A DNA stretch of 64,000 bases from an uncultured delta proteobacterium (GCA_963728565.1 CAVSLC010000015.1:1-64000), one strand, 5' to 3'; positions 15,693 to 39,003 are shown, numbered from the stretch's first letter. Notes: generated from the letters alone by a model not told the origin. Translations and numbers: made by a program.

Positions 15693-16075
15693 ATGTAACG
15701 GGGACAGACTACTTTTTTATCTACTTCCTCATTTCGCTTAGAGCGGGTCGGCCCCGTAGAGCCATCGTACTCTCTGATTGCATGAATCGGCTCAGAGACT
15801 AATGTGCGAAGCTTCAATCACAAAGTGAAAGTGATTCGGCATTAGAGAAAGCAAGCATCTTAACTGGGTGCCGCGTTTTTGCTAGCGCGAGCATGGAAAG
15901 AAAGGCTTGGTAATCTTGAGCGTGATGGAAGATAGTTGCGCGACCGTTCCCTCGGTTAATTACATGATAAACAAAACCAGCCTGTTGCGCATGCGGGATT
16001 GTCGGCATGGCAGGCCTTTATTATATAGGCGAACGTGATCACAACGATGAAAATAGCCTGTCACCTTTAATCCCC
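15693..16075 (-). mobile_element. RAYT family-1 element, internally deleted (copy A), with both TIRs
   Basis: Left end GGGGACAGACTACTTT, right end AAATAGCCTGTCACCTTTAA; encodes MP...YHVINRGNGRATIF. Confidence 0.8.
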
Positions 16076-16255
16076 GTCACTCTCGGTTTTAGTGCCATGG
16101 TGCCGCGCGATCTCATTCACCAGCTATAATGGAATATGAAAGACCGCTTGACTCCCTCCTTCTTCAGCAAGCGACACGGAAGGTTCTCGCCAGTCGTACT
16201 CTGAGCAATTTCAACTGCTCCCAGATAACCTAAGCTCTAGATATCTGCCCGGCGA

Positions 16256-17308
16256 TTAATCGCCAAGCAGAATCGCCTTCATTTTGGCCACCAGAGCCGG
16301 CTCCAGATGGAAAAGGCTGTCGATGGCTCTTCCCGCATCCTCACCGGTGGTAGGATCTATCTCGAGATTGGATTTTTTTGCCTCAGCCAAAAAGTCTGCG
16401 TCTTTCATGGTCTCCATGAAAGATCTTTGCAGTACTCTTACCCGATCTTTCGGCGTGCCTGGCGGGAGTGCATACAAGCGCGTTATCGGCGCTGTTGTCT
16501 GAACGCTGGCTGTGATTAATTTGCGTGCTTCGTCACTTTGAACCAGGTTGAGCGCGAGAGGAACTTTTGGCAGATCAGGAAGAGGCTCGTTAGTCAGTTG
16601 AACGACGATGTTCACGGTGCCTGCCTGTAAGCCGGCCCGCCAGGTAGGCTTGATCGACTCCCACTGCCAGCAACCGCCGGCCAATTCTCCACTCTCGGCG
16701 GCAAGCCGGATGGGTGCGGTGCCCGAATATCCCGAAACCAGTTGAATAGGCAGGCCAACAACGTGCTTAAGAACCAACGCGGTATTGTCGGTTATGATCA
16801 ATCTTCCAGTGCCGCCTAATTTAACCGGAGTCTTGGAGGCTTTCCACGCTTCTATCGTAGTGATTCCACTTGCCTTGGTCAGCGCACAAACGATGTTGTC
16901 CTTGACCGGAACACCGAGCCACTCGAATTTCTGAAAGTCAAAGTCAACGCCAGGCTGGTTCAACAACCGTCCTAAGGCGATGTCGGCGATGAAGGTCCCA
17001 ATCGTCAGCCCATCCGGCTTGGCTTGAAAAACATTCTTGGCCGCCACCAGAGTCGCGGCGCCGGGCTGGTTTTCAATGATGATTTGCGGGTTGCCGGGAA
17101 TATATTTGCCCCAGTGACGCGCGATTGCCCGCGCGTATACATCAAAACCGCCGCCGGGTGCAGTTCCTACGACTACTCTTACAATCTTGCCTTGATAGAA
17201 AGGACTCTGTTCCGCTGCCAGTCCAAGTTCAGGTAACGCCAAGCCGCTAACAGCTGCGACAAGGAAAATAAACAGCATCGTATAACGGACGTGACATTCA
17301 AGAGTCAT
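16256..17308 (-). CDS. TTT substrate-binding protein (TctC/Bug)
   Basis: GTAPGGGFD, ENQPGA, PDGLTIG, ESGELAG. Confidence 0.9.
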   Translation of the reverse strand: MTLECHVRYTMLFIFLVAAVSGLALPELGLAAEQSPFYQGKIVRVVVGTAPGGGFDVYARAIARHWGKYIPGNPQIIIENQPGAATLVAAKNVFQAKPDGLTIGTFIADIALGRLLNQPGVDFDFQKFEWLGVPVKDNIVCALTKASGITTIEAWKASKTPVKLGGTGRLIITDNTALVLKHVVGLPIQLVSGYSGTAPIRLAAESGELAGGCWQWESIKPTWRAGLQAGTVNIVVQLTNEPLPDLPKVPLALNLVQSDEARKLITASVQTTAPITRLYALPPGTPKDRVRVLQRSFMETMKDADFLAEAKKSNLEIDPTTGEDAGRAIDSLFHLEPALVAKMKAILLGD

Positions 17309-17490
17309 CAGCTGACCTCCGCGGCAGTGCCCCATCAAACGGATTGTAAAAACTCTCCGGGCAGTGTGGGAAGAGATCTCAAAGGGAACCACGGGAATCG
17401 CTCCCTGAGAGCTTCGGCCCAGACGCAAACGGTTGATCCTGTCTCTTGATTCTGAACTGTTGGCGCGCTTAATACGTCGCAGCGAGTCGT

Positions 17491-17829
17491 TCAGACAGGC
17501 CATCCATGTTCAGAGATATCCACCCGATTGCCTTCGGGGTCCTGTATCCAGCTCTCCGCAATGGCCCCGTAGACGTTTGAGTTCGCGGTGGTACCGACAA
17601 ACTCTTCGACGGCTTTGACGCTGGTCACTACAAAACCAAAGTGATGGATGCCCCAGGGAAGGTTCGGCGCATTGATCAGGGCAACGTCAACGAAGCCATC
17701 GGATAGATAAATCGTGCCATTCGGACCACGTTCCTTTTCTTCCAGCTTGAACACATCCTTGTAGTACTCGGCAGCTTTTTCGCGATCTTCAACGTTGATA
17801 GCGATATGGCGAATTCGTGGTCTATCCAT
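17491..17829 (-). CDS. VOC (glyoxalase/bleomycin resistance) family protein
   Basis: IRHIAI, GIHHFGF, DPEGNRVDIS. Confidence 0.9.
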   Translation of the reverse strand: MDRPRIRHIAINVEDREKAAEYYKDVFKLEEKERGPNGTIYLSDGFVDVALINAPNLPWGIHHFGFVVTSVKAVEEFVGTTANSNVYGAIAESWIQDPEGNRVDISEHGWPV

Positions 17830-17946
17830 AATCAATCTCCTTCGACAGCTTGCAACAAATAAGCGCAGACTGACATGTCTTTGGTGTTTCCTTCATCGAA
17901 GCGATTTGAACGGCCTGAACTTTTTGAACGAAAGTATTTTCCGCCC

Positions 17947-18636
17947 TTACCTCAAGCTATAACCCATCTCGTAATGGATGTAGATGCCGTCAAAAAAGAA
18001 CCATCGCATCCGTGCGCTTTCGCGCGCGTAAGTGACCGCCATCTCCTGCAACTCGGGTGTAATCGCGTACTCGTCCAGTATGTCGAAACCTTTTCCACCG
18101 TGCTCTGTATCGGCTACCGCATGCAGCCAAAAGTGTTCTATGTCCTCCTCCTTCATCCGATAGATCTCGCGCAAGGCGGGAAGCACTTTGCTATAAAGAG
18201 GCGGCGATTGGGATTCGGTGCCAACGTTGGTCGCCGCTACGCTGGCAATGAAGGACTCCTCTTTGCACACGCGGTTGAAAAACGTCACCCATGCTTCCGT
18301 GGTCGGAAGGCCTCGGCTTCGCTTGACCTGCTCGACGTCGGCTCCATTAGCGGCCGCAAATCTCAGAATGATATCGAGATGAGGACGCGCCGGATCGCTT
18401 TCCTCAAGATAATTTTCCAACAACAACCGTTGCACAGCCAACGGTGTATTCGCGGCTTTGAAGAGCTCGCCGCGGTAAATGTTGCTGATCCAGTGATATT
18501 GCTCGATGCCCCATCCCATTAATGCGTTGCGGCTGAGCTTTCCCGCAGCCCACTTTTCAGTCAACGGATGATTAACGCAATGGCGCTCCATCACGGCTGC
18601 CTCGAGTCGTTCGCGCAGAGCACTTTTGGTTGTCAT
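17947..18636 (-). CDS. Heme-oxygenase-like diiron oxidase (TenA/PqqC/CADD superfamily)
   Basis: NYLEE..xxPH, E-SQ and HAVADTEH give the CADD-type E/H/E/H/D/H ligand set. Confidence 0.8.
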   Translation of the reverse strand: MTTKSALRERLEAAVMERHCVNHPLTEKWAAGKLSRNALMGWGIEQYHWISNIYRGELFKAANTPLAVQRLLLENYLEESDPARPHLDIILRFAAANGADVEQVKRSRGLPTTEAWVTFFNRVCKEESFIASVAATNVGTESQSPPLYSKVLPALREIYRMKEEDIEHFWLHAVADTEHGGKGFDILDEYAITPELQEMAVTYARESARMRWFFFDGIYIHYEMGYSLR

Positions 18637-18684
18637 GTTTAAGTCTCCATGTTTTAGATTTGCGACTAATTCAAAGTCGGATGA

Positions 18685-19710
18685 TCACTTGAGAACGTCT
18701 TTAAGCTTGGCCACGAGAGCCGGCTCCAGCTTAAAGATTCCGTCGACTAATTTCTCCAGCTCCTCTCCCGATACTGGATCGATTTCCAAGGTCGATTTTT
18801 TTGCTTCCGCGATAAAACTCGGGTCATTCAGGGTTTCGAGAAACGCCTTACGCAAAAGCTGGACTCGTTCTTTGGGAGTTGCCGGCGGCAAAAGGTAGGG
18901 GCGTGTCATGGCGGCAGGATCATGGAGTCCCGCGCGAATCAGCTGGCGCGCCTCCTCGCTCTTGGCTTCGTCTATGGCGTTTGGAACCTGAGCCAGCTCC
19001 GGATGGCGTTTGGGATTCGTTTGGATGACTATCACCACCTCGCCTGCATCGAGGCCTTTGCGCCACGTAGTCTTGATCGATTCCCACTGAAAGCAAGCGC
19101 CCGCCAGCTCTCCGCTTTCCGCGGCAAGTCGCATATCGGCGGTGCCTTTGTAGCCCATTACGAGTTGAATGGGCAGGCTCAAAGCTTCCTTCAAAATTTT
19201 GGCATTGGTCGTGGTGGTATCTCCCGGGCCGCCCCCGCCCAATTTGACCGGTGTCTTGGAGGCCCTCCACTGCTCGAGACTGGTAATGCCACTCGCTTTG
19301 GTCAACGCACAGGCGCCGTTGTCCTTAACCGGAACTCCAATCCATTCGAAGCGACGGGCGTCAAACTCGATACCGGGACTGCCAAGAACCTGATTAAGAA
19401 TTTGGTTGCCGTGAATGTTCCCGATTGTGAGCCCGTCGGGTTTGGCAACTTTGAAGAGATGATTGGCGGCAACCAGGCTTGCCGCTCCCGTCATGTTCTC
19501 AACGACGACGCTCGGATTACCCGGGATGTGTTTACTCAGGTGACGCGCAATCGCGCGCGAATAGATATCGAAACCACCTCCCGCGGCAAAGCCGACGATT
19601 AATCGGACAGTTTTGTTCTTAAAGAAGTCGTCGCTTGCCGAGATCACAGTACCCGGCATCAGAGTAAGGCTAAAAAGGAACGAACAAAGAACGGCAAAAT
19701 TTCTCTTCAC
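18685..19710 (-). CDS. TTT substrate-binding protein (TctC/Bug)
   Basis: GFAAGGGFD, ENMTGA, PDGLTIG; close paralog of 16256-17308. Confidence 0.9.
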   Translation of the reverse strand: MKRNFAVLCSFLFSLTLMPGTVISASDDFFKNKTVRLIVGFAAGGGFDIYSRAIARHLSKHIPGNPSVVVENMTGAASLVAANHLFKVAKPDGLTIGNIHGNQILNQVLGSPGIEFDARRFEWIGVPVKDNGACALTKASGITSLEQWRASKTPVKLGGGGPGDTTTTNAKILKEALSLPIQLVMGYKGTADMRLAAESGELAGACFQWESIKTTWRKGLDAGEVVIVIQTNPKRHPELAQVPNAIDEAKSEEARQLIRAGLHDPAAMTRPYLLPPATPKERVQLLRKAFLETLNDPSFIAEAKKSTLEIDPVSGEELEKLVDGIFKLEPALVAKLKDVLK

Positions 19711-20037
19711 CGCGATTTCGCTTTCTTGAGCAGAGGCATTCGCAGTTGTACGTCCACTCGGTTGCGATAGGACTCCACTTGATGACAACACTTCGTCCGA
19801 CACAAGCTAATCAAGACGCCTTTCGCTGTCAATCAAAAATTGTCAGCTGTGTTGTAGCAAAGCGATTATGTCAGATGACCGGCTAACAATCTGAGATCAA
19901 GAAAAAACCGCTAACGATAATCGAGAGAGTCTATCCAAGAGAGACTCTGCTGCGCCATTGAACGTGGCGGGGTTTGTTCTCTAAGATATTTTCGAGTGAA
20001 CCGTTAGGGCAACCTCTTGGGGTCTACCATTGGAATT

Positions 20038-20202
20038 GCGAGCCGCGGCAAGGGCTCTGGCATGGTGGAATCGGGAGTAAGCCTGATGCGAATGGAAATT
20101 GCTTCGCCTCACGAAATGTCAGATGAGCTGGTCTTACGAAACAGCCAATCCTGCTCGGGCCACAGACAGCATTAGAACCCCCCCACACACACACATTTTC
20201 AG
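20038..20202 (+). pseudogene. Degenerate duplicate of the rlpA 3' end and downstream DNA
   Basis: GCCGCGGCAAGGGCTCTGGCATGGTGGAATCGGGAGTAA...CGAATGGAA...AGCCAATC...CATTAGA aligns with 12769-12930. Confidence 0.75.
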
Positions 20203-20600
20203 CCCTTGCGGTCGTTCAGACGTCGCTAAGCCCAAGTTACTGTAGAGGCTTCATAACCGCGTAGGTTTTTGTCTCTCAGTAACTAATGCCTATTTTGAAA
20301 TTTTTTATGAGGAATCGAGATGTTAGACAGTCTGAGGCACATGACGGCCCGGGAGTTTACCACGTCAGCTATGGACTCAGCGAAGACCTGTCGCTATCAG
20401 TTCCTTGTGGGTTTTTCATCTTGAAAATGCGTCGTTTTTACAAAAGTTGCCCACCAGCGAAAAGACTCTCCGTCTTCTATCCATGTGCCAACGAGAAGGG
20501 CTTCTTGATTGGAGATCATAATTTTACAGTTGGCCGTCCCTTGTATGTGCGTATTGCCGTTAATGGCTGTGAACCCACCGCGGAACTCATTCCCTGCGGG

Positions 20601-21345
20601 ATGTAAAGGGGACACGCTACTTCTTATCTACTTCCTCATTTTGCTGAAACCGGGTCGGCCCCATGAACGCATCGTACTCTCAGGTCCAATAGACCTGCAA
20701 TCGACGTCTGCCAGTCTGGTTCTCCAAAAGGTCTTTAACGATTCACTGACTAACGAATTGCAGCCAATTGCCGCGCTGATAGCGGTTCGTCCAAATGCGC
20801 CAGCCGGTCTGTCTCGACTTCGAAAGGACAGGGATCGGCCAGCTCGTTCCGACAGCAACTTGACTTACGGCCGATCATCTATCGACGCTGCCAAGCCTGA
20901 TCTGACTGGATTCTGTAACACGTAGCGCACGACCATTAGCAAATGCTCATCGCGCTGCACTGGAAAACTTTTAAACCGGCCCTGCCAAACATGCCCGCTG
21001 CCGCCGTAATGCTTGTGATAACGCCGTACGTGACTGGTCAAGATCCCTTGCATGAATCGGCTCAGAGACTGGTGATGCGAAGCTCAATCAGAAAGTGAAA
21101 GTGATTCGGAATCAGAGAGAAAGCAAACAACTTAACTGGGTGCCGCGCTTTTGCTAGCGCGAGGATGCAAAGAAAGACTTGGTGATCTTGAGCTTGATGA
21201 AAGATAGTTACGCGACCGTTCCCTCGGTTGATCACATGATAAATATAACCAGCCTGTTGCGCACGCGAGCTTCTTGGCATGGCAGGGCTTTATCATTTAT
21301 GCGAACGTGATCACAAACGATGAAAGTCGCTTGTCCCTTAATCCC
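20601..21345 (-). mobile_element. RAYT family-1 element, near full length (copy B); transposase pseudogene
   Basis: YHVINRGN, LIPNHFHF (HUH), HVWQGRFKS, RYVLQNPVR (catalytic Tyr) and C-terminal ESTMRSWGRP, split over frames. Ends TAAAGGGGACACGCTACTT / AAAGTCGCTTGTCCCTTAA. Confidence 0.88.
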
Positions 21346-21383
21346 GTCAATCTCCCGATCTCCCTCGGCTGTCCTTAGACGCT

Positions 21384-21562
21384 TTGAACGAGGCGCAGCG
21401 ATCCAACGGCTTGAACGAAATCGTTTATTCCTCTGGCGCGCGGCATCACTTGTTCATAGAACAAACATTCAATAAACGCTGCGTTCTCCACGTTGTGTTC
21501 CTGAGTTTCCTAAATTATTTGAACCAAGCGAAGCGGGTGAACGTTTGGAACGACTGGAACAA
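21384..21562. repeat. Low-complexity TTGAAC/GTTCAA-rich intergenic repeat family
   Basis: Clusters of TTGAACG/TGGAAC here, at ~17905-17930, and in reverse orientation at ~40510-40660. Confidence 0.45.
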
Positions 21563-21594
21563 GCCCGGGGTTATGGTCCGATGACACCCTGTTC

Positions 21595-22656
21595 TTATCG
21601 CATTGGCAGCGGCGTCGCTCCGGAAAAGGTCTTGAACAGGTCGATCAATTCAGGGTCGCGAGGGGTATCTTGAATGGCCTTGGTCAAATCCTCCGGCATC
21701 AACGGACTTGCCTCTTCGCCAACCACCTTGCGGTATTCGCGATGAAAATCCGGATCTGTAAAAGTCTTGCGCATCGCCTCCTGAAGATCAGCAACACGAT
21801 CTTTGGGTGTCCCGGGCGACAGAACGTAAGGTGAGCCGGTGAGCCTGAATGTTCGCGAGAGAGCGAGCAGCCTGCGTTCTCGTTCGGACTTAGCGAAGGT
21901 TTCGATCTCAGGAAGGTGGCCAAAGCGGGGGTGCTTGAGATCTTTGGGAATTGCATAGATCGCATGGAAATCCATTAGACCTTTTTCCACCCAATCAGGA
22001 TTGCGATGCCAAACTGAGGTTGCGGTGTTCGCCCTGGCGTCGATCTCCCCACTCAGCAGTGCGACGTCCAAGTCCGGCGCCCCGTACCCCGGGATAAACT
22101 TCGGGTCCTTCAAAGCGAGAAAGTACGCAAAGAATCGTGCCGCTATGTAGGCGCTATGTCCGACGGGCCGGGTTCCCACTCTGACTCCGGGAGTCGCTCT
22201 GAGTTTTTCCAAACTGTTCAAGCCCACGTCTTTTCGGGTATAGAACACTAGATGGCTGGAGCTTTCCGGCGAGCCGAGATAGAGGAATTTATCAACATCG
22301 TACATCACTCCGGTCTCACGTAAGAGACTTAGTCCAATGACGCTGCTGCTGAACGCGCCGATCGTGAGCCCGTCAGGGCGGGCGTTGCGAAATAGGTGAT
22401 TGCCCACTTGTCGACCACCGCCGCCGTCCATGTACTCGATGAGGATTGTGGGATTTCCTGCAATGTATTTGCGCAGAAAAGGAACCGTAGCCTTGACCCG
22501 GTTGTCGCCAATTCCTCCGGGGGCGGTCGCGGCAATGATCTTTATGGTCTTGCCTTGGTAATAGGGCGCTTGCGCAAAGGCGTACTCGGGTGAAAGACCG
22601 GTTAGCACCACCAGCACGCCAAAGACTGCTAGTCCAACGAGGGCCTTGGTAATCAT
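21595..22656 (-). CDS. TTT substrate-binding protein (divergent TctC/Bug)
   Basis: APGGIGD, YMDGGGG, PDGLTIG, SGEIDA. Confidence 0.85.
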   Translation of the reverse strand: MITKALVGLAVFGVLVVLTGLSPEYAFAQAPYYQGKTIKIIAATAPGGIGDNRVKATVPFLRKYIAGNPTILIEYMDGGGGRQVGNHLFRNARPDGLTIGAFSSSVIGLSLLRETGVMYDVDKFLYLGSPESSSHLVFYTRKDVGLNSLEKLRATPGVRVGTRPVGHSAYIAARFFAYFLALKDPKFIPGYGAPDLDVALLSGEIDARANTATSVWHRNPDWVEKGLMDFHAIYAIPKDLKHPRFGHLPEIETFAKSERERRLLALSRTFRLTGSPYVLSPGTPKDRVADLQEAMRKTFTDPDFHREYRKVVGEEASPLMPEDLTKAIQDTPRDPELIDLFKTFSGATPLPMR

Positions 22657-22929
22657 AGGAGACCACCCAATTTCTTTTTTTCAGTCGGCCGAAAGTTTAA
22701 CAGAAATCTTTTGCCACACCGGATCTGTGCAAAGCCAACAGATTTGAAAACCTTCCTAACTGATCTGGCGGCTTATGTCCATGCATATGCGGCTGCCTAC
22801 CGGGCGAATCTGAAACCAGTCATGAGCAACTGTAAGAGAAAAGAACCGAAGGATGGAGTGGGACTTATTTAATAGGGCGGCGACAAGAAACTATCAAGTG
22901 AGTAGGCGTGACAAAACCAGGCAACGGCT

Positions 22930-23075
22930 GACCGCTCTGGATAGAGTACTCAGGAACAACCCCCCGCGCGTTGCGGCGGTTAAACAGATGCTAGATCGAT
23001 CGGAAAATTTTAATCGTAGGGCGTCGCGCCATTAACGCTTCGCAGGAGCGACGTTGCAGCATAAGACCTGACACC
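22930..23075 (-). pseudogene. 5' stub of a different RAYT, with GACCTGACACC end motif
   Basis: MARRPTIKIFRSI*HLFNRRNARG resembles the MARRPR...YHVxNRGN start; terminal motif at 23065-23075. Confidence 0.5.
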
Positions 23076-23084
23076 AGGTTCTTG

Positions 23085-23225
23085 GGCCGCGCCCGTTCTC
23101 CCGGTTGATCGAATGATAAAACAAAACCTGCCTCTTGCGCGCGCGGGATTCTCGGCATGGCAGGGCTTTATCATATAGGCGAACGGGATCACAACGATGA
23201 AAGTAGCCTGTCCCCTTTAATCCCC
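23085..23225 (-). mobile_element. RAYT family-1 5' end (copy C)
   Basis: Shared block GGCAGGGCTTTATCATATAGGCGAACGGGATCACAACGATGAAAGTAGCCTGTCCCCTTTAATCCCC. Confidence 0.8.
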
Positions 23226-23330
23226 TTCGAAAGTAAATGATCATGGCTCAACGACGCGGTGCCGTTCTCCGGCTCATTCGAAGTTAAACTCATTTTCAGA
23301 ACACGCAGTCGATTAAAGCATCTAGGTACT

Positions 23331-23360
23331 GTGGCTCAACTAGCTAACTCCATACTTGAC
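23331..23360 (+). repeat. 30-bp direct repeat, copy 1 (copy 2 at 27699-27728)
   Basis: GTGGC(T/G)CAACTAGCTAACTCCATACTTGAC, 29/30 identical. Confidence 0.85.
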
Positions 23361-23482
23361 TTAAATGAAAAGCAGATGTTGCGAGCTGCACCTCGCAAAT
23401 TGGGCGGTGACGGTCTCTAATGGACCAACATATTAACAGGCTGACTCTGTGAGGAGTCGCCTAAGCCTAAAGGAGGTGCAGC

Positions 23483-24567
23483 ATGAAAGAGTATATAGGA
23501 GTGGACCTGGGGAAGCACAAGGCCGTGGTGGTAAAGAAAGATCGACAGGGAAAGACAACCAGCAAGGTTACTGTACCTGTGACTCAAGCAGCATTGGAAA
23601 GTTATTTTTCGAAGCAGGACCGTCGAAGCCAGGTGGTGGTGGAGGCCACGGGGAACTGGATGTATCTCTACGAGACCATCGAGCGCTACACACCGGAGGT
23701 CGTCTTGGCACACCCACTTAAGACCCGGGCGATTGCCGAGGCACGGATTAAGACCGACACCATTGATGCGACGACCTTAGCGGAACTGCTACGTCTAGAT
23801 GGCATCCCGAAAGCGTATATACCACCTCGTGAGGTTCGTGACATTCGAGAGTTGTTGCGTTACCGGGCCTCGCTGGTATCGATACGAGTCGGTATCAAGA
23901 ACAAGATTCATGCGGTGCTGACCAAGAACGGCATCGATTGCACGTTCAGTGATATTTTGGGGAAATCCTCCCGGCAGTGGCTGAAGAGTCTAGCCGTGCG
24001 TGCTTGCTATCGGCTAGAGATTGATGGGTATCTACGGATCGCGGAGGCGTTGGCGATTTCGATTGGAGAGATCACAAAAACGATAAAGGCCGAGGTAGCT
24101 GAAAACCCACAGGCTCAACTATTGATGGGTATTCCGGGTATCAGCTACTACTCGGCTCTGTTAATCCTCAGTGAGATTGGTGAGGTAGACCGTTTTCCCA
24201 ATGCCAAGCGATTGTGTTCGTATGCCGGCTTGGTTCCCAGTATCTATAGCTCGGGAAGCAAGAGCTACAGCGGATCACCAAACAGGGTTCACGGTGGCTG
24301 CGATGGATTTTGGTAGAGATCAGCATCCATGCCGCCAACGGGGATTCGAACTTTCAGAAAGTGTACCGCAGAGTGAGTCGACGACGCGGTCCTAGCACGG
24401 CGAGAGTGGCGGTAGCGCGAAAGATCCTCACTGTCATTTACGCCATGCTAAAGCGAAGTGAGTCGTTTAACCGTCACAGACCTCGGCAACGACTTATGGC
24501 TGTACCTGGGCGAAAAAAAGTGACCGACGTCTCTGGTCATCCTCCTGGGGTCATGGTCCCGGCCTAA
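23483..24567 (+). pseudogene. IS110 transposase/recombinase with one frameshift near 24272
   Basis: GVDLG, VVEATG, KTDTID (DEDD), IPGI, YAGLVP..SSG; continues ITKQGSRWLRWILVE...VAVARK in another frame. Confidence 0.88.
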
Positions 24568-30028: not shown

Positions 30029-31039
30029 TTATTCCCGTTTCTCCCACCGTGCGATCAAGCCCAGCAAATCGCAGACGCGATTGGAGTATCCCCATTCATT
30101 GTCGTACCAACTGAGACACTTTAGATATCTACCGCCCGTAACGCTGGTAAATGCCGGGTCGAAAATAGAGGAGTGCGAATTCCCTATGACGTCGGATGAT
30201 ACGACGGGTGTTTCCATGAGTTGCAAAATGCCTTTCATCCGTTTCGAGTCCGCCGCGGATTTTATCGCGCCATGAACGTCCTCGGCACTAATACGTTTCT
30301 GGAGCTCGACGAACAAGTCGACCACGGAGCCATCGGGTACCGGTACCCGCGCGGCGATTCCGTCCAGCCGTCCTTTCAATTCAGGCAAGACCTCGCCCAC
30401 CGCCTTGGCCGCTCCGGTGGATGTCGGTATGATATTTTCCGCCGCGGCGCGGCTCCGCCGCCAATCCGAGTGCGGCACGTCGGCGAGGCGCTGATCGTTG
30501 GTGTAGGCGTGCACGGTATTGATGATTCCTTCCACGATACCGAAAGAATCGTGGAGCACCTTGGCCAGCGGCGCAAGACAATTCGTGGTGCAGCTCGCGT
30601 TAGAAATCATCCTGTGCTCGGGCTTGAGCCCGTCATCGTTGACGCCGATTACGACGGTATAATCGATCTCATCCTTCGCCGGAACGGTCAGCACCACTCG
30701 CTTGGCTCCCGCATCCAGATGCTTGGCAAGTTGTTCCCTGCTAGTGAATATTCCCGTCGATTCGATGACGACATCGATGTCGATCTCGCGCCAGGGCAGT
30801 TTGAGCGGGTCCTTTTCACGAAGCATGCGCGTCCGACCGTGCGATGTCACCAGTTCATTGCCTTCGAGTCGCAGGGCGCCCTCAAAACGACCCATTACGG
30901 TGTCATAGTTGAGCAAGTATCGCAGCGCGTCATGGTCGAAGAGGTCATTGATCGCAACCAGTTCGGCGTCCGCCCGCTTATCGAGAATGCGGAACACAGA
31001 ACGGCCGATTCGACCGAATCCATTAATGGCAACTCTCAT
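30029..31039 (-). CDS. gap: Type I glyceraldehyde-3-phosphate dehydrogenase
   Basis: NGFGRIGR, ASCTTNCL, TVHAYT, PTSTGAAKA, RVPV, WYDNEWGYS. Confidence 0.95.
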   Translation of the reverse strand: MRVAINGFGRIGRSVFRILDKRADAELVAINDLFDHDALRYLLNYDTVMGRFEGALRLEGNELVTSHGRTRMLREKDPLKLPWREIDIDVVIESTGIFTSREQLAKHLDAGAKRVVLTVPAKDEIDYTVVIGVNDDGLKPEHRMISNASCTTNCLAPLAKVLHDSFGIVEGIINTVHAYTNDQRLADVPHSDWRRSRAAAENIIPTSTGAAKAVGEVLPELKGRLDGIAARVPVPDGSVVDLFVELQKRISAEDVHGAIKSAADSKRMKGILQLMETPVVSSDVIGNSHSSIFDPAFTSVTGGRYLKCLSWYDNEWGYSNRVCDLLGLIARWEKRE

Positions 31040-32055
31040 CGCCCACCTCCGATCGTATCGAGGGTGCTGTAGTGCCGGACCACTTCGAGCACGCGGCACG
31101 CATGCCCCAGGCTCTCATACCAGGCCAGCACTTTGATTATTCTTTTTCCTGCTTTAATGGTGGCGAGCGAATCGAAGAGCAAGGATTGCCGGCAACCGAT
31201 GACATCCGAAGAAACAATCGGATCATCGGTCACGCCGATCAACGTCGGATGATCGGCAGCGGCGGCGCGCATAGCTCCGCTCACTTGCTCGGCCGTGACG
31301 GTGCCAGCCTGCATGACGCAGTTAACATCGAGCAATGATCCGCGTTGGACCGGCACGTTAAGGGCGTAACCGCTCAACTTTCCCTCAAACTTGGGCAGAA
31401 CAAGCTCCACCCATCGCGCGGACTCATTGTTGTTGGGGATGATATTCTCCGCCGCGGACCGGCTGCGCCGGAAATCTTTGTGTGCATAATTCTGCAGCGA
31501 CTGATCGCTACTATAGGCGTGGACCGTCGTCATCGATGCGCAGTCGACTCCTAAGGCCTGATCCAGAGATTGCAATAAAAGCGCAAATGCATTGGTGGTC
31601 GCGGAACCGGCCGAAATCATTTTGTCCGCGGCGGCGGCGCTCCCTTCATTGATTCCCGGTACTACGATACGGTCGATTGATTCCGCCGGCAGCGACGCCA
31701 GAATGACCCGCGGGGCACCGGCGCGCAGATGGGCCTCCATGTCCCGACGACTCTTATATCTGCCTGTGGCATCGACGACGCAGTGGACATCCAGAACATC
31801 CCATGGAACCTCCTCCGGCCGGACAAGCTGGAGCATTCTTGTGCGGAACTTCTCGTTGATCAGGTAATTGTCCTGGAGCTCGCAGGGCGCCTCGTCCACG
31901 CCGTCGCTATTGAGCAGATACTGAATGATTTCAGGTTTGCCGATATCGGCCACCGCGACGATTTCGATATCATCTATTTCCCGCGCAAGGTGATACAGAT
32001 GCCGCCCAATTTGGCCCAATCCCATAATGCCGATTCGGATTTTACCATTACGCAT
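31036..32055 (-). CDS. GAPDH-like protein lacking the catalytic cysteine
   Basis: GLGQIGR, full-length fold, but AGSATTNAF replaces ASCTTNCL and WYES replaces WYDNE; ATGA overlap with gap. Confidence 0.88.
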   Translation of the reverse strand: MRNGKIRIGIMGLGQIGRHLYHLAREIDDIEIVAVADIGKPEIIQYLLNSDGVDEAPCELQDNYLINEKFRTRMLQLVRPEEVPWDVLDVHCVVDATGRYKSRRDMEAHLRAGAPRVILASLPAESIDRIVVPGINEGSAAAADKMISAGSATTNAFALLLQSLDQALGVDCASMTTVHAYSSDQSLQNYAHKDFRRSRSAAENIIPNNNESARWVELVLPKFEGKLSGYALNVPVQRGSLLDVNCVMQAGTVTAEQVSGAMRAAAADHPTLIGVTDDPIVSSDVIGCRQSLLFDSLATIKAGKRIIKVLAWYESLGHACRVLEVVRHYSTLDTIGGGR

Positions 32056-32174
32056 TTGGCCGCCTCCGTTTCCGCAAAATTAAGCGCTCGAAGTTGGCGT
32101 TATCCATAGCCGAGAACTCTAACAACCGATCAACCAAAAGAAAATGCTTTTCTGAGGAAATCGTCAAACTGGAG

Positions 32175-32494
32175 GTGTAAAGGGGAGAGGCTACTTTTTA
32201 TCTACTTCCTCATTTCGCTGAGACTGGTGATGCGAAGCTTCAATCAGAAAGTGCAAGTGATTCGGCATCAGAGCGAAAGCAAACATCTTAACTGGGTGCC
32301 GCGCTTTGCTAGCGCGAGGATGGAAAGAAAGACTTGGTAATCTTGAGCTTTATCAGAGATAGTTGCACGACCGTTACCTCGATTGATCACATGATAAATG
32401 AAACCAGCCTGTTGCGCACGTCGGCATGGCAGGGCTTTCATACAGGCGAACGTGATCACAGACGATGAAAGTAGCCTATCCCCTTTAATCCCCC
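32175..32494 (-). mobile_element. RAYT family-1 element, internally deleted (copy F), with both TIRs
   Basis: TAAAGGGGAGAGGCTACTTT ... AAAGTAGCCTATCCCCTTTA; YHVINRGNGRATI. Confidence 0.85.
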
Positions 32495-32495
32495 C

Positions 32496-32715
32496 GATTT
32501 GAACATGGTTCGCGCCCGAGTGGTTACGCATCCCTGTGATTGGACACACAGCGGCGCATCGCGAAGTCATTGAAAGTGGCGGTACATATGAGCTCCGGGA
32601 GCAGACTCAAAGTTATGGGTCCAATTTCGGCGGTTAAATGAGGTGCTAAGCTTGGATATACTAGCTTCTGGAACGAAGATTTAAACCTAGTGCAACTTAG
32701 GCTTGGTCCGACCCC
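32496..32715 (+). mobile_element. RAYT family-2 3' remnant ending GGTCCGACCCC
   Basis: Deleted copy of 34870-35395 (shared GAAGTCATTGAAAGTGGCGGTACATATGAGCTCCGGGAGCAGACT). Confidence 0.75.
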
Positions 32716-32834
32716 GGACTTCTAGTTTCACCCGGTAGGGTCGCAGGCTACTGCAGTAGAGCCGGCGGAGTATATGGGCGCGGCAAAATCCTTTTGAGCT
32801 GCCAAGAGCCCCGTACGGCAAACTTCAGGGTGAA

Positions 32835-34304
32835 TTACCGTATGAACCCTAACAGTCTCCAATAAGGAACACTGACGCCTAACGCTAAAAAGTTCGCAGC
32901 GCATCGTACCACCATGAGTTTCCGAGCTTGCGCATGTGAAAACGCATTGCCGTCTGTACTGTAAAAGGCGATTTGATAAGCATCGTTCTGAGATAGAAGA
33001 AACCAGCTCTCATTTGCCATAAGGATGGTGATTAGAAGAATTCCGGGATGCACCCCCAGCTCCTGCCCCCAAGAACTTAGCCCGAGAGTGGATAAGAGAA
33101 TAACGGTTGGTGTTTTACCGAGAAAGAAACGAATGAAGTACACGGCTACTGAAACAACCGTCAGAAAAGCCAAAGGACCCAACGCCACATAAGAAAAGTA
33201 TGGACCGATAGATGCCATGAGCCACTGATCGATTTTTAGATGACGCATGATGCCGTCGAAACTCGAAATCACACCTAAGAAAAAGAGGAAACCCCAATCT
33301 ATTCTGGCTTTGAAATCGTCTTTTTCGAGTACTCTGGTTAGAAGGAAAACTGAGAGCGCGCCCAACGCAACCCATGTCTCGCTCAATCCATGCATTGGCT
33401 TTGATAACCACCCGACAAGCGCGAACATCAGTATTCCGAGACTAAGCCGTTCATTACGGGTTAATGATTTCGGCCTATCGAGAGGATGATCTGGTTGTTT
33501 CACTTGGCTAGACCGTGAAATGACTTCGGTCGGGAACAGGTAGTGTACTCCGAGGAGTAGGCATCCCAGTGTAACGACTCCCGCCGGAAGCGCGGCCACA
33601 GCCCAAGTCGTCCAGCCAAAATCCAATTTGGCTGCTTGCGGAAGTAAGTTCCATCCGATCAAGCAGGAGGTCGCTCCTGTAAGGAACATAAATGCACATT
33701 GGGTAAAACCGACATACGCTGAGAGGCCTATTCCCGCCGAGCCGTTCGAGCGCCTTTCAAATCCCATTGTTTCCGAGATCGTTCTACTGAGAGGTGCTGC
33801 TATCGCCATACGAGCCTTACTCGTTGGCATCACCGGGGTAACTATGAGACCAGATATGGTGAGTAACCAGGTGTACATCCGGTAATTAGGCGAGATCCGG
33901 CGCAGAGTTTCTAAAGCTATACTATGAAACAGCCCAGATTTGTTGACGGCAACAGCGATCCCAAGAACTGCAACAACAAAGCACCATGACGTCTTGGAGA
34001 ACCCGGCCAGCGCTACTTCTGAGGGCACGGCATCCGAAACTACCCAAAAAAGCAACATCAATATGCCGACAAGATACTCGTCGTATACGTTGAACATGAG
34101 AAGCAGCGTTCCGGCGGTAAGACTACCGAGAAAATAGAGTCCGCTCGCATCCAGGAGGGCGGGGGTCGGAAGCTGCATGACTAGCCAACCCATCGTCAAA
34201 GCGATCATCAGGCCAATAAGTTTTCCATCAAATATCTGCGCCGCGTTCCGTGCTGACCACAACGAGTCCGTTATCGGCTGGAGAGTCTGGCTGCGATTCA
34301 TCAA
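32835..34304 (-). CDS. SLC13/DASS family anion:sodium symporter
   Basis: Multiple TM segments; ALAGFS, MPTSKAR, MFLTG, IDWGFL, SVPYWRLLG. Confidence 0.85.
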   Translation of the reverse strand: MMNRSQTLQPITDSLWSARNAAQIFDGKLIGLMIALTMGWLVMQLPTPALLDASGLYFLGSLTAGTLLLMFNVYDEYLVGILMLLFWVVSDAVPSEVALAGFSKTSWCFVVAVLGIAVAVNKSGLFHSIALETLRRISPNYRMYTWLLTISGLIVTPVMPTSKARMAIAAPLSRTISETMGFERRSNGSAGIGLSAYVGFTQCAFMFLTGATSCLIGWNLLPQAAKLDFGWTTWAVAALPAGVVTLGCLLLGVHYLFPTEVISRSSQVKQPDHPLDRPKSLTRNERLSLGILMFALVGWLSKPMHGLSETWVALGALSVFLLTRVLEKDDFKARIDWGFLFFLGVISSFDGIMRHLKIDQWLMASIGPYFSYVALGPLAFLTVVSVAVYFIRFFLGKTPTVILLSTLGLSSWGQELGVHPGILLITILMANESWFLLSQNDAYQIAFYSTDGNAFSHAQARKLMVVRCAANFLALGVSVPYWRLLGFIR

Positions 34305-34865
34305 CGAACCACGTCAAATGCTAGGCCGCACTGCGAAGGTGTTTCTTCGGCATTTGACAACTGTTCAAAGAGAATTTTAGTCATCGCTTCAATAACAATT
34401 TGTCCGCCCATTATATCTTTCCGGCTTTCTAAGCTTGAGTAGCCATTCATGTTAACATCTCTTCAGTGACAAAACCCTTTCCTTCACAACGAGCTACGTC
34501 TTCCGGTTCCCCCGGATGACACCCGCGCTACGTAGAAACGTTCTCCTATAGCTGCATCTTGTTTCGGATCAGGCGGGAACTGCCAACCAAAACAGATAAG
34601 GCAAAGCCGATGCCGTTTACTGATCGGAGTTTTAACCGTTTGTCGGTAAACCGTGGCACTGCTGGGGTGACGATAAATGCCAAAAGTGACTGTCGCTGCA
34701 CAAAAGCGTCGTCTGATTTTCTACTCGGCACGTTGGGAAGCTGAGAAACCGCACTGACTCAAGAGTAACATCGATGGAGGGAGGTGGGCCGGTTAGCGCT
34801 TATGGCGGATATTTCCAACATAAATACCAAACTGCATCAACCCAGCAATCCTGAGATGTTTCGTC

Positions 34866-35385
34866 ACGGCGCATTTTGGAGACCGCTATCATGCCACGGC
34901 CATCGAGATTAACGAGCAACTTCAACATTGTCTCGTTTACATCGATTTGAATATAGTTCGCGCCGGAGTCGTTACGCATCCCTGTAATTGGACACACGCG
35001 GGTTATCGAGAGATGCAGAAACCCCCCGAAGCGCTACGGGATTATCGATCTACCGGAGTTAAGTTCGCTATGTGGATTCGGCGACGTTGCAACATTTCAG
35101 CAAGCACATCGTCGGTGGGTAGATGATTCACTCGCGCGCGAGGCGATGGCAAGAGAAGGTGCGTGGTCAGAAGCGATTGCGGTCGGCAATTTGAATTTTG
35201 TTGATAAGGTGCAGAACGAACTCGGATACAAAGCGGCACACCGCGAAGTCATTGAAAGTGGCGGTACATATGAGCTCCGGGAGCAGACTGAAAGTTATGG
35301 GTCCAATTTTAGCGGTCAAAATGAGGTGCTAAGCTCGGAGAACACTAGATTTTGGAACGAAAGTTCCGAAGTTACTGCAACTTAG
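34866..35385 (+). pseudogene. RAYT family-2 transposase, 5'-truncated and frameshifted
   Basis: GAFW-DRYHATAIE, CLVYIDLNIVRAGVVTHP, WSEAIAVG. Confidence 0.75.
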
Positions 35386-35473
35386 CTTGGTCCGATAATC
35401 ATCTAGCAGGCTCCTTCGATAGGCCGTAACGTGCGGGGACATCAACCCACACCCGCTCAAAGGAGGAAGCGAG

Positions 35474-36490
35474 ATGAAATTGTACGGAGCTATTGATTTG
35501 CATTCCAACAACAACGTGACGGTGGTGATCAACGAGCAAGATCAAGTGTTGTATCAGAAGCGCTTGCCCAACGATCTTTCGTTGATCGCGCAGCAACTCT
35601 CGAGCTATCGCAGATCGCTACAGGGAATCGTGGTGGAGTCTACCTATAACTGGTACTGGCTGGTCGATGGACTGATGGAGAAGGGCCATCAAGTTCATCT
35701 GGCCAACACCGCGGCGATCCAGCAATACAATGGGCTGAAGTACACCGATGACCACAGCGACGCGCGGTGGCTGGCCCATCTGCTGCGGCTAGGGGTCTTA
35801 CCCGAGGGCTACATTTATCCCAAGGAAGAGCGAGCGGTGCGTGATTTGTTGCGCAAGCGCGGCCAGCTCGTGCATCAGAGGACGGCTAATCTTCTCAGTA
35901 TCCAGAGTCTAATCAGCCGGACCACGGGAAACTCGATCGGCACCCAGTACATCAAAGCGCTCAATATCGAACATCTGGATGGAGTCTTACCTAACCCGGA
36001 TCACATCCTTGCACTCAAAGCCAATCTGGCAGTCATGAAAAGCGCTGATGCCCAGATCGAGATCTTGGAAAAAGCCGTCCAGGACCGAGTCAAGCTACGA
36101 CCTCAGTTCGGATTTCTAAAGACGGTACCCGGAATCGGGCCGATCCTGGCGCTGACGATCATGCTCGAGACCGGAGAGATCGAGAGATTTGCCTGTGTCG
36201 GCAATTACGCTTCGTACTGTCGCTGTGTGGGGAGCCAGAAGATCAGCAACGGCAAACGTAAAGGAATCGGCAATACCAAAAACGGCAACAAGTATTTGGC
36301 CTGGGCGTTTGTAGAGGCTGCCAATTTTGCGATCCGGTTTAATTCGAAGATCAAAGGCTTCTATCAGAAAAAGAAATCTAAGAGCAATGGGATTGTGGCA
36401 ATCAAAGCGGTGGCCCACAAGCTCTGCCGGGCTTGCTACTACATTATCAAAGATCAGGTGGCTTTTGATCTCACCAAAGCGTTTGCTTAG
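35474..36490 (+). CDS. IS110 transposase/recombinase (intact)
   Basis: AIDLH, VVEST, YTDDHSD (DEDD), VPGIG, catalytic-Ser region ISNGK, AVAHKL; AGGAGG RBS. Confidence 0.93.
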   Translation: MKLYGAIDLHSNNNVTVVINEQDQVLYQKRLPNDLSLIAQQLSSYRRSLQGIVVESTYNWYWLVDGLMEKGHQVHLANTAAIQQYNGLKYTDDHSDARWLAHLLRLGVLPEGYIYPKEERAVRDLLRKRGQLVHQRTANLLSIQSLISRTTGNSIGTQYIKALNIEHLDGVLPNPDHILALKANLAVMKSADAQIEILEKAVQDRVKLRPQFGFLKTVPGIGPILALTIMLETGEIERFACVGNYASYCRCVGSQKISNGKRKGIGNTKNGNKYLAWAFVEAANFAIRFNSKIKGFYQKKKSKSNGIVAIKAVAHKLCRACYYIIKDQVAFDLTKAFA

Positions 36491-36499
36491 CAGATCGAT

Positions 36500-36942
36500 T
36501 TAACGGTTGGGATGGGATAGTGAGCCTTGGCTGGGGTTGGCTTAGAACCACATGGTCCGATTTGGCGGCTCTCCCGTCCCTGATCATATGGACAACTCGG
36601 CGGTGCTGTGATTCGATGGACGCCCACGCCGTGAGCCACAATAGGGTTGGCCCCCAACAGGGAGAGCCACAGGATCTGTGATCCTATAACCTTGGACGCG
36701 GCGTGGTACCGATAGTTTTCTGGGGCAATTAAGATTGCCAGGGGCGCGAGATCGCTGCCCGAGAGGACAGCTCTCAAAGCCTTGAACCTGATGGGTGACT
36801 GGTGCGTACCTACGGTCCGACACCAACTGATTGAAAACAGGGGCGCGTCAATCAGGGATCACATAGTCGGCGAGGGTTCAAAAAGGGAATAAGAAAAATT
36901 CTCACAGGAACGTCTGTGCCTCTTGACCTGCCTGCTAATGGG
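36500..36942 (+). ncRNA. Candidate bridge/seek RNA of IS110 #2
   Basis: GAGCC...GGCTC stem enclosing GGGGTTGG (36533-36540) and TGGTCCGA (36553-36560), matching opposite strands of the target; a second GTGAGCC..GGGTTGG module at ~36631. Confidence 0.55.
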
Positions 36943-37127
36943 CGACCCAACGCTTTGTACGCAAAACTGACTTTCACCATGGGCTGCTAAACGTGGAGAG
37001 CCTCGAACAAACGCTTGGGGGAGACTCAGAGAGAAGCCGCCCATTGAAAAGTAGGCCGTTTGGCTTTCCCCATCAGAGTGGCGTGGGATCTGATGGGGAA
37101 AGCCGCGACCAGAACACTCGACAATCG

Positions 37128-38459
37128 CTAAAACCGAGCATTGGCCCAGTTGGCGACATAGTTCCACGTATTGAGCAGCACGTTAACATAAGGGCCCGTA
37201 CCGTGGTAAGCAGCGCATTCATTGCAGTTCCCGCCGCCGTGGGTCGCCCCCTCCACGACGATAAACTCCTTATTGATGGCGGCCGCATTCTCGAAGATCT
37301 CCTCGCCATCACGAATGAAATAGTGGCCTTGGTGCGCCAAAACCAGGGTGGGCACCGAGATCACCCGAACCGCGCAGACCGTAGAGTTATTGGTCGAGCA
37401 CCAATCCAGGTCATCAAGCGCATGGTGAGAGCGGATTGCATTGGCACTTAAGAATGATGTGATTGTGAATTCCTCGGGGCTGTTTTCATCGTCGTCCTTG
37501 ATATCTGGAGTAGGAACTCTGACGGTACGAATGATCTGCGGGGCCGAGAGCTCCCCGGTCGCGTCCTGTAGAAGTTTCGTTGGATTCAGCGTGCAGCAGT
37601 GAACCTGGGTGGTAAGTTGCACCAAACGCGCGTTGACGCGGTTAAGAACAAATGCGTCATCAGCCGGGTCATGCAACCCAAGCTCCATTTTGCGCCTGAT
37701 TGTTAGAGCATCCCTAATCAGATTGTTCATACGTCTTGACTGCGCAAGAGAGTATTTGTCGACAAAATGATCCGAGTAGGTTGAATCGCCATCCGGTTCG
37801 TGGTCTGGCGGGAGGCCGTTGTAGCCGTTTGCCGGGTCGAAAGGGTCGAGCGTTTTATTGATCGCAGGACCGAATGGTTGGTTTTCATTGACGACAGATG
37901 CGTTAACCGAACGCAGCCCATTGACCCCGACTCCCGGATGCGCGTCAGTAAAAACGATTCCGTTAGCTCTATCCGCAGCGTTGAAATCTGTGTCTGTAAA
38001 AGGGCACTCAGTAATTTTCTTAGGCCCCTGGCAGTAAGATGGGCCATTTTCCGCTAACGCCTGGTAGTAGGACGTGCTCGGACCACCCCCACTGCGCCCA
38101 ACTAGAATGACGCTTGTGTGTCCTTTGCTTCTTAGGAATCGCACTCCATTCCGTATATCGAGAGCGATTAGCTCGAAGTTGACGGCGGCTTCGCTATTGC
38201 CGAACCTAGTTCTGATACCAAGAGTGCCAAAGCCTCGATTTGCCAACTCCACAGATGACTGATGGTTTCGATAGTCATTGGTGCGATGGATAGAAAGGAA
38301 CGCGATGCGAGGCACTGGCCCCACCGCTGGAACCCGATAACGGCCAAGCGCGCCGTCACCCAAATTAACTTCTTCGATAGTTACCTGGGCAGAAGCGTTG
38401 GTCATTCCGAGAACTATGCCCAAACCAACGATGAATGACAAAATCTTTAATCTTACCAT
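37128..38459 (-). CDS. Exported alpha/beta hydrolase
   Basis: Signal peptide, GRSGG nucleophile elbow, VPTLV, EGATHG; GGGAGG RBS. Confidence 0.8.
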   Translation of the reverse strand: MVRLKILSFIVGLGIVLGMTNASAQVTIEEVNLGDGALGRYRVPAVGPVPRIAFLSIHRTNDYRNHQSSVELANRGFGTLGIRTRFGNSEAAVNFELIALDIRNGVRFLRSKGHTSVILVGRSGGGPSTSYYQALAENGPSYCQGPKKITECPFTDTDFNAADRANGIVFTDAHPGVGVNGLRSVNASVVNENQPFGPAINKTLDPFDPANGYNGLPPDHEPDGDSTYSDHFVDKYSLAQSRRMNNLIRDALTIRRKMELGLHDPADDAFVLNRVNARLVQLTTQVHCCTLNPTKLLQDATGELSAPQIIRTVRVPTPDIKDDDENSPEEFTITSFLSANAIRSHHALDDLDWCSTNNSTVCAVRVISVPTLVLAHQGHYFIRDGEEIFENAAAINKEFIVVEGATHGGGNCNECAAYHGTGPYVNVLLNTWNYVANWANARF

Positions 38460-38724
38460 AGAAACCTCCCTTGACTCTGTATGCCACTCTTAATACGCCA
38501 CCACCGTTACCGTCAAATTCTTTTTATGAAAGCAGCCATTTGATTTTTTAATGCCTGCACGGGGGAATCAAAAGCCTGAGATTTCCGCAAATCGAACCAA
38601 CATCAATGGCGAGGAAAAGCACTCTTAAGCCGCAGTTTGTTCAACACCAAACCATTACGCTAGAGATTTCAACATGAACTTTTCGCAACCTTAAAACTGG
38701 TCGCCGACACTTACACGGCTCAAG

Positions 38725-39002
38725 AGCCATTGCATGAATCGGCTCAGAGACTGGTGATGCGAAGCTTCAATTACAAAGTGAAAGTGATTCGGCATCAGAG
38801 CGAAGCAAACCTTAACTGGGTGCCGCGCTTTGCTAGCGCGAGGATGGAAAGAAAGGCTTGGTAATCTTGAGCTTTATGAAAGATAGTTGCGCCGACCGAC
38901 CGTGATTGATCACATGATAAACAAAACCAGCCTGTTGCGCGCGCGGATTCTCGGCATGACAGGGGCTTTATCATATAGGCGAACGGGATCACAAACGATG
39001 AA
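38725..39002 (-). mobile_element. RAYT family-1 5' segment (copy G), TIR lost
   Basis: Same block as A/B/F, truncated at GATGAA. Confidence 0.8.
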
Positions 39003-39003
39003 G

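Follow-up and report, generated by a model that had tools for sequence, protein, structure and literature searches.

The 64,000-nucleotide stretch of DNA considered here, the window (GCA_963728565.1, CAVSLC010000015.1:1-64000, from an uncultured delta proteobacterium), has at 14000..42000 a variable island of low GC content, 0.49-0.53, but 0.57 over a pair of GAPDH genes, as against 0.55-0.61 outside, and the island is flanked by ordinary metabolic genes. Lying in it, with unrelated genes (the 'cargo') in between, are all the copies of a short repeated unit: a gene for a single-tyrosine (Y1) transposase of the HUH type, resembling the REP-associated tyrosine transposases (RAYTs; REP, repetitive extragenic palindrome), framed by terminal inverted repeats. 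It will be argued that the unit is a TIRtron. How did its copies come to be close to each other and in a single orientation, and has it had any role in bringing in the genes between them?

A direct-repeat scan of the 64-kb window, alignment of the copies and tblastn with an intact relative delimited six related copies plus a diverged one, D, i.e., seven, with the gene on the minus strand in all of them and the whole set between 15.7 and 39.0 kb, just as an earlier reading made from the sequence alone (the sequence-only reading) had it. The copies are 79-89% identical to each other in alignment. The likeness gives out at the repeats, to within a few bases, and the DNA flanking the copies is unrelated. 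None of the seven is intact. Copy B (20598..21348), the only one of full length, is a pseudogene whose reading frame, with its ATG at 21280, has several frameshifts and in-frame stops; its 3′ repeat is at 20604-20623 and its 5′ repeat, near 21320-21345, is degenerate, with, as judged by eye, about 5 of 20 positions off consensus, hence its being missed when up to three mismatches are allowed. Copies A (15693..16075) and F (32172..32493) also keep both ends, at 15696-15715 and 16050-16069 in A and at 32178-32197 and 32468-32487 in F, and are internally deleted, of approximately amino acids 79-200 and 73-208 respectively. That A, B and F retain both ends, that A and F have different deletions and that C and E keep only the 5′ end had all been correctly recognised at the outset, but the notion of MITE-like derivatives (a MITE being a miniature inverted-repeat transposable element) has to be dropped, as A and F, with breakpoints that differ, occur once each and the window has no amplified family of that sort. 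By eye, the deletion in F has its breakpoints at the short similar words TCTCTGAGC and GCTCTAAGC, an arrangement that would suit slippage. The others are stumps: C (23086..23225) consists of an exact 5′ repeat (23200-23219) and codons 1-24, its remainder being lost; E (29725..29959) of an exact 5′ repeat (29934-29953) and codons 1-57; G (38718..39002) of codons 1-82 with frameshifts, neither end being left, as unrelated sequence stands where its 5′ repeat should be and its 3′ part is lost; and D (28952..29029), at which no repeat was detected, of a diverged piece corresponding to amino acids 8-33 of intact relatives (tblastn E values 2e-4 to 8e-5). All four of these truncated copies retain N-terminal sequence by tblastn. 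The copies have since decayed, through stops, frameshifts and deletions. The two-sided chance of seven out of seven being on one strand is 2 x 0.5^7 = 0.016, and the chance of all seven being inside 23.3 of the 64 kb is approximately 0.011 for uniformly placed points.

What did the gene encode? The N-terminal open piece of copy B finds 36 relatives, 33 of them annotated PF01797 and the full-length forms having 217 amino acids, and an intact one, P0017, scores 59.5 bits on Pfam PF01797 Y1_Tnp (cut-off 23). On NCBIfam REP_Tyr_transpos, where the cut-off is 80, pieces of copy B score 31 and 36 bits, below it as expected of fragments, and five relatives score 84 (P0017), 90.1, 73.5, 80.5 and 71.9 bits, with three of the five passing; on NCBIfam transpos_IS200 (NF033573) the score is 20.5 bits and the cut-off 55. 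A sequence profile built on 40 relatives has TnpAREP, 4er8, as its best match among solved structures, and the predicted model (predicted local distance difference test score 91.7), which has a TnpA-type fold, likewise matches 4er8_A TnpAREP best in the PDB (E 1.2e-9) and then the TnpA proteins of ISDra2 and IS608; it matches 27 PDB chains at E <= 1e-3, and all those listed, to E 8.8e-4, are TnpAREP or of the IS200 family (ISDra2, IS608). In the 40 sequences N59, H60, H62 and Y120 are invariant, and F61 and W99-Q100 are invariant or nearly so, the conserved motifs being NHFH, WQ, W-S-S and Y---NP with the tyrosine motif reading YV(L/E)xNP, i.e., an HUH motif and a single catalytic tyrosine are present. 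Even the dead copy B reads IPNHFHF, with NHFH as the HUH motif, and RYVLQNPVRSGL, its RYVLQNP holding the catalytic tyrosine. The conserved C-terminal third ends in G-R-P within a tail rich in arginine and lysine, and this may resemble an AT-hook; Pfam found no helix-turn-helix domain in the P0017 tail. The 59.5 bits on Y1_Tnp and the match to 4er8 support the initial identification of the window genes as genes for Y1 HUH, RAYT-like tyrosine transposases.

The relatives are many. A contig search with one genome per species gave at least 584 that were confirmed, of which the best 76 loci were kept for all the locus counts given here. Genes are intact at 72 of the 76, the intact proteins having 216-231 amino acids, and among these best loci only one, L001, is close to the window element (93%), the others being 45-67% identical; L001 is a metagenome-assembled genome also labelled 'uncultured delta proteobacterium' (contig CAVUZH010000013.1). 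The hosts of the best 76, going by record titles, belong to Acidobacteriota, Nitrospirota, Planctomycetota (R. baltica, of relevance below, is a planctomycete), several deltaproteobacterial groups and Binatia, and further to Actinomycetota, Bacillota, Omnitrophota, TA06 and WOR-3. The subfamily was not found in a PLSDB plasmid search with P0017, the seven records matched all being at 29-37% identity.

In the window the repeat stands out from chance, as TAAAGGGGACAGGCTACTTT at up to three mismatches has seven matches versus 0.00 expected from 100 shuffles: 15696 (+), 16050 (-), 20604 (+), 23200 (-), 29934 (-), 32178 (+) and 32468 (-). All seven are at ends of repeated units, and at that stringency the window has none outside the elements or outside 15.7-39.0 kb. 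The inverted repeat of 20 bp originally described is a true terminal repeat, but its real length is about 24-25 bp, GGAT(G)TAAAGGGGACAGGCTACTTT. The TIRtron motif GGGGWSAS is carried by the ends as GGGGACAG, which fits it fully, and in the second main variant, GGGGACAT, it is off at the last position. When folded singly, five ends give only -1.8 to -2.7 kcal/mol (z -1.2 to +0.45), and none of these five has the arrangement of canonical REPs, in which a 5′ GT[AG]G is at the foot of a self-folding hairpin. Short inverted doublets fold strongly, at -29 and -31 kcal/mol (z -8.6 and -9.1), and when copy F is folded as single-stranded DNA the terminal stem consists of its two repeats. The contrast that had been drawn with RAYT genes flanked by GTAG REPs is right in that the ends here are not hairpins, but is less sharp than it seemed, as the repeat itself contains GTAG, within the stretch that base-pairs with the opposite end.

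The same ends are kept in at least eight phyla. At 69 of the 75 testable loci the best inverted repeat between upstream and downstream DNA is the same 19-25 bp sequence, and by a stricter pattern the repeat core is at both ends at 67 of the 76 loci, at one end at 8 and at neither at 1, so that the expectation of inverted ends in intact homologues is borne out. Three end variants are involved: GGGGACAGGCTAC (GG) at 40 loci, GGGGACATTCTAC (TT) at 25, these being a clade with an MPRTARAS-type N-terminus, and the self-palindromic GGGGACAGTCCCC at 2. Over the 67 loci the GG and TT forms are never mixed between the two ends of one element and the variant agrees with the protein clade without exception, which for related sequences is a description rather than a test. 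About 19 nt of the repeat are kept between proteins only 45-67% identical and, among the 72 intact genes of relatives, 49 have as their stop codon the TAG of GTAG within the 3′ repeat. As the repeat is conserved better than the protein, has a variant that tracks the clade and supplies the stop codon, it is likely to be the recognition site of the enzyme. At L016, L019, L021, L022, L048, L060 and L067 there are miniature doublets that are perfect at the ends but for the most part unrelated inside. The L048 doublet at 11639-11735 is a single case where matching changes in the arms, CTAC to CTGG and GTAG to CCAG, keep complementarity with loss of GTAG. A separate peculiarity is that the main-copy ends at L016, L038, L039 and L059 have CTGC in the 5′ repeat and GTAG in the 3′ repeat, an asymmetry that could mark functionally different left and right ends.

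Does such a unit still move? Pairs of copies that are alike from repeat to repeat are present in L031 (99.2% over 733 bp), L041 (99.9% over 799 bp), L059 (99.2% over 905 bp) and L032 (96.4% over 724 bp), and in L001 at 92.5-97.2% over about 740 bp, and their flanks are unrelated. At the junctions, few of which are readable, no direct repeat or target duplication and no target word was seen. Identity from repeat to repeat with differing flanks, and no direct repeat seen, implies that the unit moves as a whole; the whole gene-plus-ends unit duplicates, and has done so recently, in several phyla. Within 10 kb of the main copy there are 17 extra copies, at 10 of the 76 loci, and 14 of them are oriented like it, the three opposite ones being divergent paralogues without DNA match to the main copy. 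In 20 kb of L001 there are five copies in one orientation, four of full length and one a 3′ half, and co-oriented copies 0.4-9 kb apart are a feature of the window, L001, L031, L032, L041 and L059. New copies, then, tend to land nearby and in the same orientation, and to that extent the local self-copying proposed in the sequence-only reading stands.

These duplicates bear on a quite different perspective, namely that the genes are domesticated, immobile RAYT-like host genes and that the window repeats arose by segmental duplication. RAYTs generally have been argued to be domesticated (Bertels 2017, PMC5581495), and for TnpAY1 subclass 2.1, to which we return, the accessible text of its description gives a mean copy number of 1.9, 49% within-genome identity and no typical features of insertion sequences (PMC6006769). 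For the present elements the proposition is very improbable. In no copy examined does similarity go more than a few bases past the repeats, and, the flanks being unrelated, segmental duplication was rejected as the source of the copies; four lineages have repeat-to-repeat duplicates at 96-99.9%; and other genomes have the miniature doublets whose ends are perfect and interiors unrelated.

The close relative reveals what befell two of the window copies. L001 17307-19821 is 97% identical over 2515 bp to window 32223-29725, and the match spans the last 45 bp of F, both of the GAPDH genes that lie between F and E (30029..32055, minus strand), and continues into E. In L001 the counterpart of E is of full length and that of F is a 3′ half copy. 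As the counterparts in this 97% identical block are longer or different, E and F decayed in place by deletion, and on that comparison they did not arise as one-ended copies or as a transposed miniature. This contradicts, for E and F, the one-ended copying that the sequence-only reading had thought possible. One-ended, rolling-circle-like transposition of the IS91/ISCR sort would have produced C, E and G as 5′-only copies and taken neighbouring DNA along. The retention of N-terminal sequence by C, D, E and G is what it has in its favour, but four out of four has a two-sided chance of 0.125, the L001 array holds a copy that is 3′-only, and the truncations are inside the gene, where read-through would instead give the whole element plus downstream flank. 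IS91-type transposases are much larger, two-tyrosine, enzymes, and what is encoded here is a 217-amino-acid single-tyrosine enzyme with TnpAREP as its best structural match. One-ended transposition is hardly credible for these copies.

What of the cargo? The GAPDH homology extends into the copy on either side, ending only where the window has deletions. The one other item of cargo common to window and L001 is a glyoxalase gene (93% identical as DNA, 95% as protein), and there the similarity is gene-sized, starting about 300 bp beyond the nearest repeat end in L001 and more than 1.4 kb from one in the window; the remaining cargo of the two is unrelated. No cargo breakpoint at a repeat end, such as the sequence-only reading had proposed as a check on gene capture, was seen between window and L001, and with the shared GAPDH block running through the repeats into both copies gene capture finds no direct support. 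PADLOC and PHROGs had 0 matches to 16 unannotated window open reading frames (ORFs), i.e., the unannotated cargo shows no defence or phage sign, and Rfam and tRNA scans of the window found nothing, from which there is no tRNA-type island boundary. Arrays in relatives are in variable, conflict-related islands. They adjoin modules of polymorphic toxins and immunity proteins, namely HNH with Imm33 (L041 10869-11835) and RHS with Imm21 (L059 5240-6879), and the L001 array has the Shedu gene SduA, DUF6119 and a restriction specificity gene of type I next to it (L001 448-5295).

An alternative that gives the cargo an active part is that co-oriented copies form a cargo-moving platform, either a composite of two copies and the genes between them or a circle of one copy and cargo that joins a resident copy, the joining being by homologous recombination or by the transposase. 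This is in effect the gene capture of the sequence-only reading made workable. IS26 translocatable units move in this manner, and by either route arrays of direct repeats would be built up and blocks reshuffled from genome to genome. Co-oriented arrays do recur, in the window and at L001, L031, L032, L041 and L059; two arrays that are otherwise unrelated in cargo have the copy-flanked GAPDH pair in common, at 97% identity; the L041 toxin fragment and immunity gene are between 99.9% identical copies, the L059 copies adjoin the RHS and Imm21 module and the first L001 copy follows the Shedu and restriction-specificity genes; and most cargo genes are oriented as the elements are. However, no breakpoint was seen at a repeat end, the GAPDH homology entering both copies and that of glyoxalase being away from the repeats, and the contexts are accounted for just as well by insertion into variable islands; further, by Pfam none of the 36 + 32 window ORFs scanned is an integrase or a tyrosine or serine recombinase, and no attC-like site was found in the window. 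Gene capture is a minority possibility, and a cargo-moving composite, though possible, is unlikely. More doubtful is the ambitious version in which TIRtrons, beyond being selfish insertions, are a cassette platform driven by the Y1 HUH enzyme, element-plus-gene units being excised and rejoined, through recombination between copies or through action of the transposase on paired repeats, with shuffling of metabolic, toxin-immunity and defence genes among the variable islands of unrelated bacteria. Were it true, the near-invariant 19-nt repeat, conserved in at least eight phyla, would be the common docking site through which lineages could exchange units.

The explanation that we prefer, with a probability of roughly 0.7, is that the window repeats are seven dead copies of a TIRtron that excises and reinserts as a unit and that the cargo was not captured. 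From its sequence this TIRtron is a unit of about 740 bp in which a TIRYT gene of about 217 amino acids is framed by a 20-25 bp repeat, AAAGGGGACAGGCTACTTT ... AAAGTAGCCTGTCCCCTTT. Like IS608 TnpA and TnpAREP, the enzyme would act on single-stranded DNA, where the two repeats could pair into a stem that brings the ends together, the unit behaving as a giant REPIN (a hairpin-forming REP doublet). Excision and reinsertion would be at the replication fork, and with fork-coupled movement targets close at hand and a constant orientation would be favoured. Insertions are presumably tolerated in the low-GC island, so that copies would accumulate there, and the 'cargo' would be whatever genes lie between insertions. 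The window minus strand is G-rich throughout, which fits fork coupling, and replication-coupled orientation bias is established for IS608 and ISDra2 (PMC5027513).

Several points weigh against this explanation. For the fork-coupling step the test over loci is without significance: the sense strand is G-rich in only 32 of the 53 loci with at least 8 kb of flank (p = 0.17), making GC skew too weak a test to support or reject it. Cleavage points, target preference and the missing target duplication rest on the junctions of four near-identical pairs. The comparison with L001 is with one close relative and covers 20 kb, and frameshifts in the L001 copies could be sequencing errors. There are also the GAPDH pair, with copies on both sides in two arrays that otherwise differ in cargo, and the L041 toxin-immunity pair between two 99.9% identical copies, arrangements that fit cargo movement as well as they fit insertion.

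Other things in and about the island merit mention. A second, longer, Y1 gene family has left two remnants in the window, 32495-32711 (+) and 34884-35400 (+), which are 86-92% identical and have the conserved stretches '...DLNxVRAxVVTHP...' and '...GGTYELREQTxSYGSNF...EN...'; the first lacks 234 bp and starts within a few bases of the 5′ end of copy F. Two IS110-family transposase genes (Pfam DEDD_Tnp_IS110 and Transposase_20) are at 23483-24567 (+), where the gene is split, and at 35474-36490 (+); one starts about 260 bp past the 5′ repeat of copy C and the other some 80 bp past the stop of the second remnant of the Y1 family. REP-like sequences are targets of some IS110-family elements, and those here may have homed to TIRtron ends. 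The 3′ end of a lytic-transglycosylase-like (DPBB) gene at 12229-12900 (+), outside the island, is repeated at 78% at 20041-20269 (+), near the 3′ end of copy B, and a similar fragment abuts the L001 half copy (16701-16939); such fragments may trace how the island was built. At its far edge is a Zeta-toxin/AAA kinase-like ORF (41016-41546, minus strand), for which no partner gene was identified. At 44646-54490 (minus strand) split gene pairs for a thiamine-pyrophosphate enzyme, with the N and C domains as separate ORFs, are repeated four-fold and alternate with NMT1/THI5-like binding proteins, forming the direct-repeat families D4 and D7.

Taken alone, the window is the graveyard of a known type of element and ordinary. 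What is added is that duplication in the manner of an insertion sequence still goes on in several phyla and involves the whole TIRtron from repeat to repeat rather than the repeats only, which bears on the debate about whether RAYT-like genes are domesticated or selfish. As copies land close by with a shared orientation, fork-coupled single-strand transposition becomes open to test for an enzyme with inverted-repeat ends in place of hairpins, and a repeat that exceeds the protein in conservation is a clean substrate for biochemical work.

How does the element compare with known systems? Two can be put aside. An integron-like cassette array was rejected for want of an integrase or attC-like site, the boundaries being remnants of transposase genes, and membership of IS91/ISCR was rejected on the 217-amino-acid Y1 enzyme and on E and F being in-place deletions of copies that are longer in L001. 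IS26 translocatable units and pseudo-compound transposons are similar in having directly oriented copies with unrelated cargo between, but their DDE enzyme is unrelated and here there is no evidence of targeted joining at an existing copy. With IS200/IS605 elements, IS608 and ISDra2 among them, the likeness extends to the Y1 HUH fold, the absence of any target duplication seen and the multiple copies with decayed members, and to an orientation bias that could reflect fork coupling (PMC5027513). However, the present element has terminal inverted repeats rather than subterminal hairpins, Y---NP rather than Y---Q and no tnpB partner, and membership was rejected because the ends do not fold, because of Y---NP and because transpos_IS200 is below its cut-off.

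The REPtron of E. coli, i.e., TnpAREP/RAYT (4er8), is the best match by sequence and fold, and shares with the element the presence of GTAG, a gene bracketed by inverted copies of its presumed cognate site and, in relatives, short folding doublets. It differs in that single ends here are not palindromic and GTAG is in the paired repeat instead of the unpaired foot of a hairpin, and in that the gene here is multi-copy and moves with its ends: where RAYTs are single-copy genes with many dispersed REPs, there are seven copies in 23 kb of the window and five in 20 kb of L001.

By motif comparison the element is probably of TnpAY1 subclass 2.1. As defined in the accessible parts of Quentin, Siguier, Chandler and Fichant 2018 (PMC6006769), that subclass has the motifs NH[YF]H and W[EQ], a C-terminal tail and no REP nearby, and is bracketed with the Group 1 RAYTs of Bertels. 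The counterparts here are NHFH, WQ, the class 2 Y---NP, W-S-S for the 'SS' after the core, a C-terminal tail beyond the catalytic core and no canonical REP nearby. The subclass has a median length of 238 amino acids versus 216-231 here, and Y[IV]HLNP with a helix-turn-helix-like tail versus YV(L/E)xNP and, in the P0017 tail, no helix-turn-helix by Pfam; its low copy number and low identity contrast with the near-identical neighbours found here (PMC6006769).

The closest counterpart is the TIRtron. Di Nocera, De Gregorio and Rocco (2013, BMC Genomics 14:522; PMC3733652) gave the name TIRYTs to RAYT-like genes with long inverted repeats and TIRtrons to the units, and reported them in Acidobacteria and R. 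baltica, with GGGGWSAS as a motif common to the repeats and families that also occur as dimers or clusters. Subsequently 20 of 26 TIRYT genes were placed in subclass 2.1, a tentative equation (PMC6006769). The element is of this known kind, and the new class of RAYT that the sequence-only reading had proposed does not hold up. As far as the accessible text of the 2013 paper goes, the likeness embraces the RAYT-like Y1 gene, terminal inverted repeats in place of REP hairpins, repeats at a short fixed distance from the gene or overlapping it, GGGGWSAS in the form described above, dimers and clusters of repeats, and hosts in two phyla, acidobacterial and planctomycete, that also carry relatives here. 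There the repeats are 'unrelated to GTAG repeats' but the repeat here carries GTAG, and whole-unit duplicates and co-oriented local arrays, both seen here, are not among the TIRtron features described in that text (PMC3733652). Unit duplication, co-oriented local arrays and deep conservation of the repeat go beyond the published descriptions of TIRtrons, as far as these were accessible.

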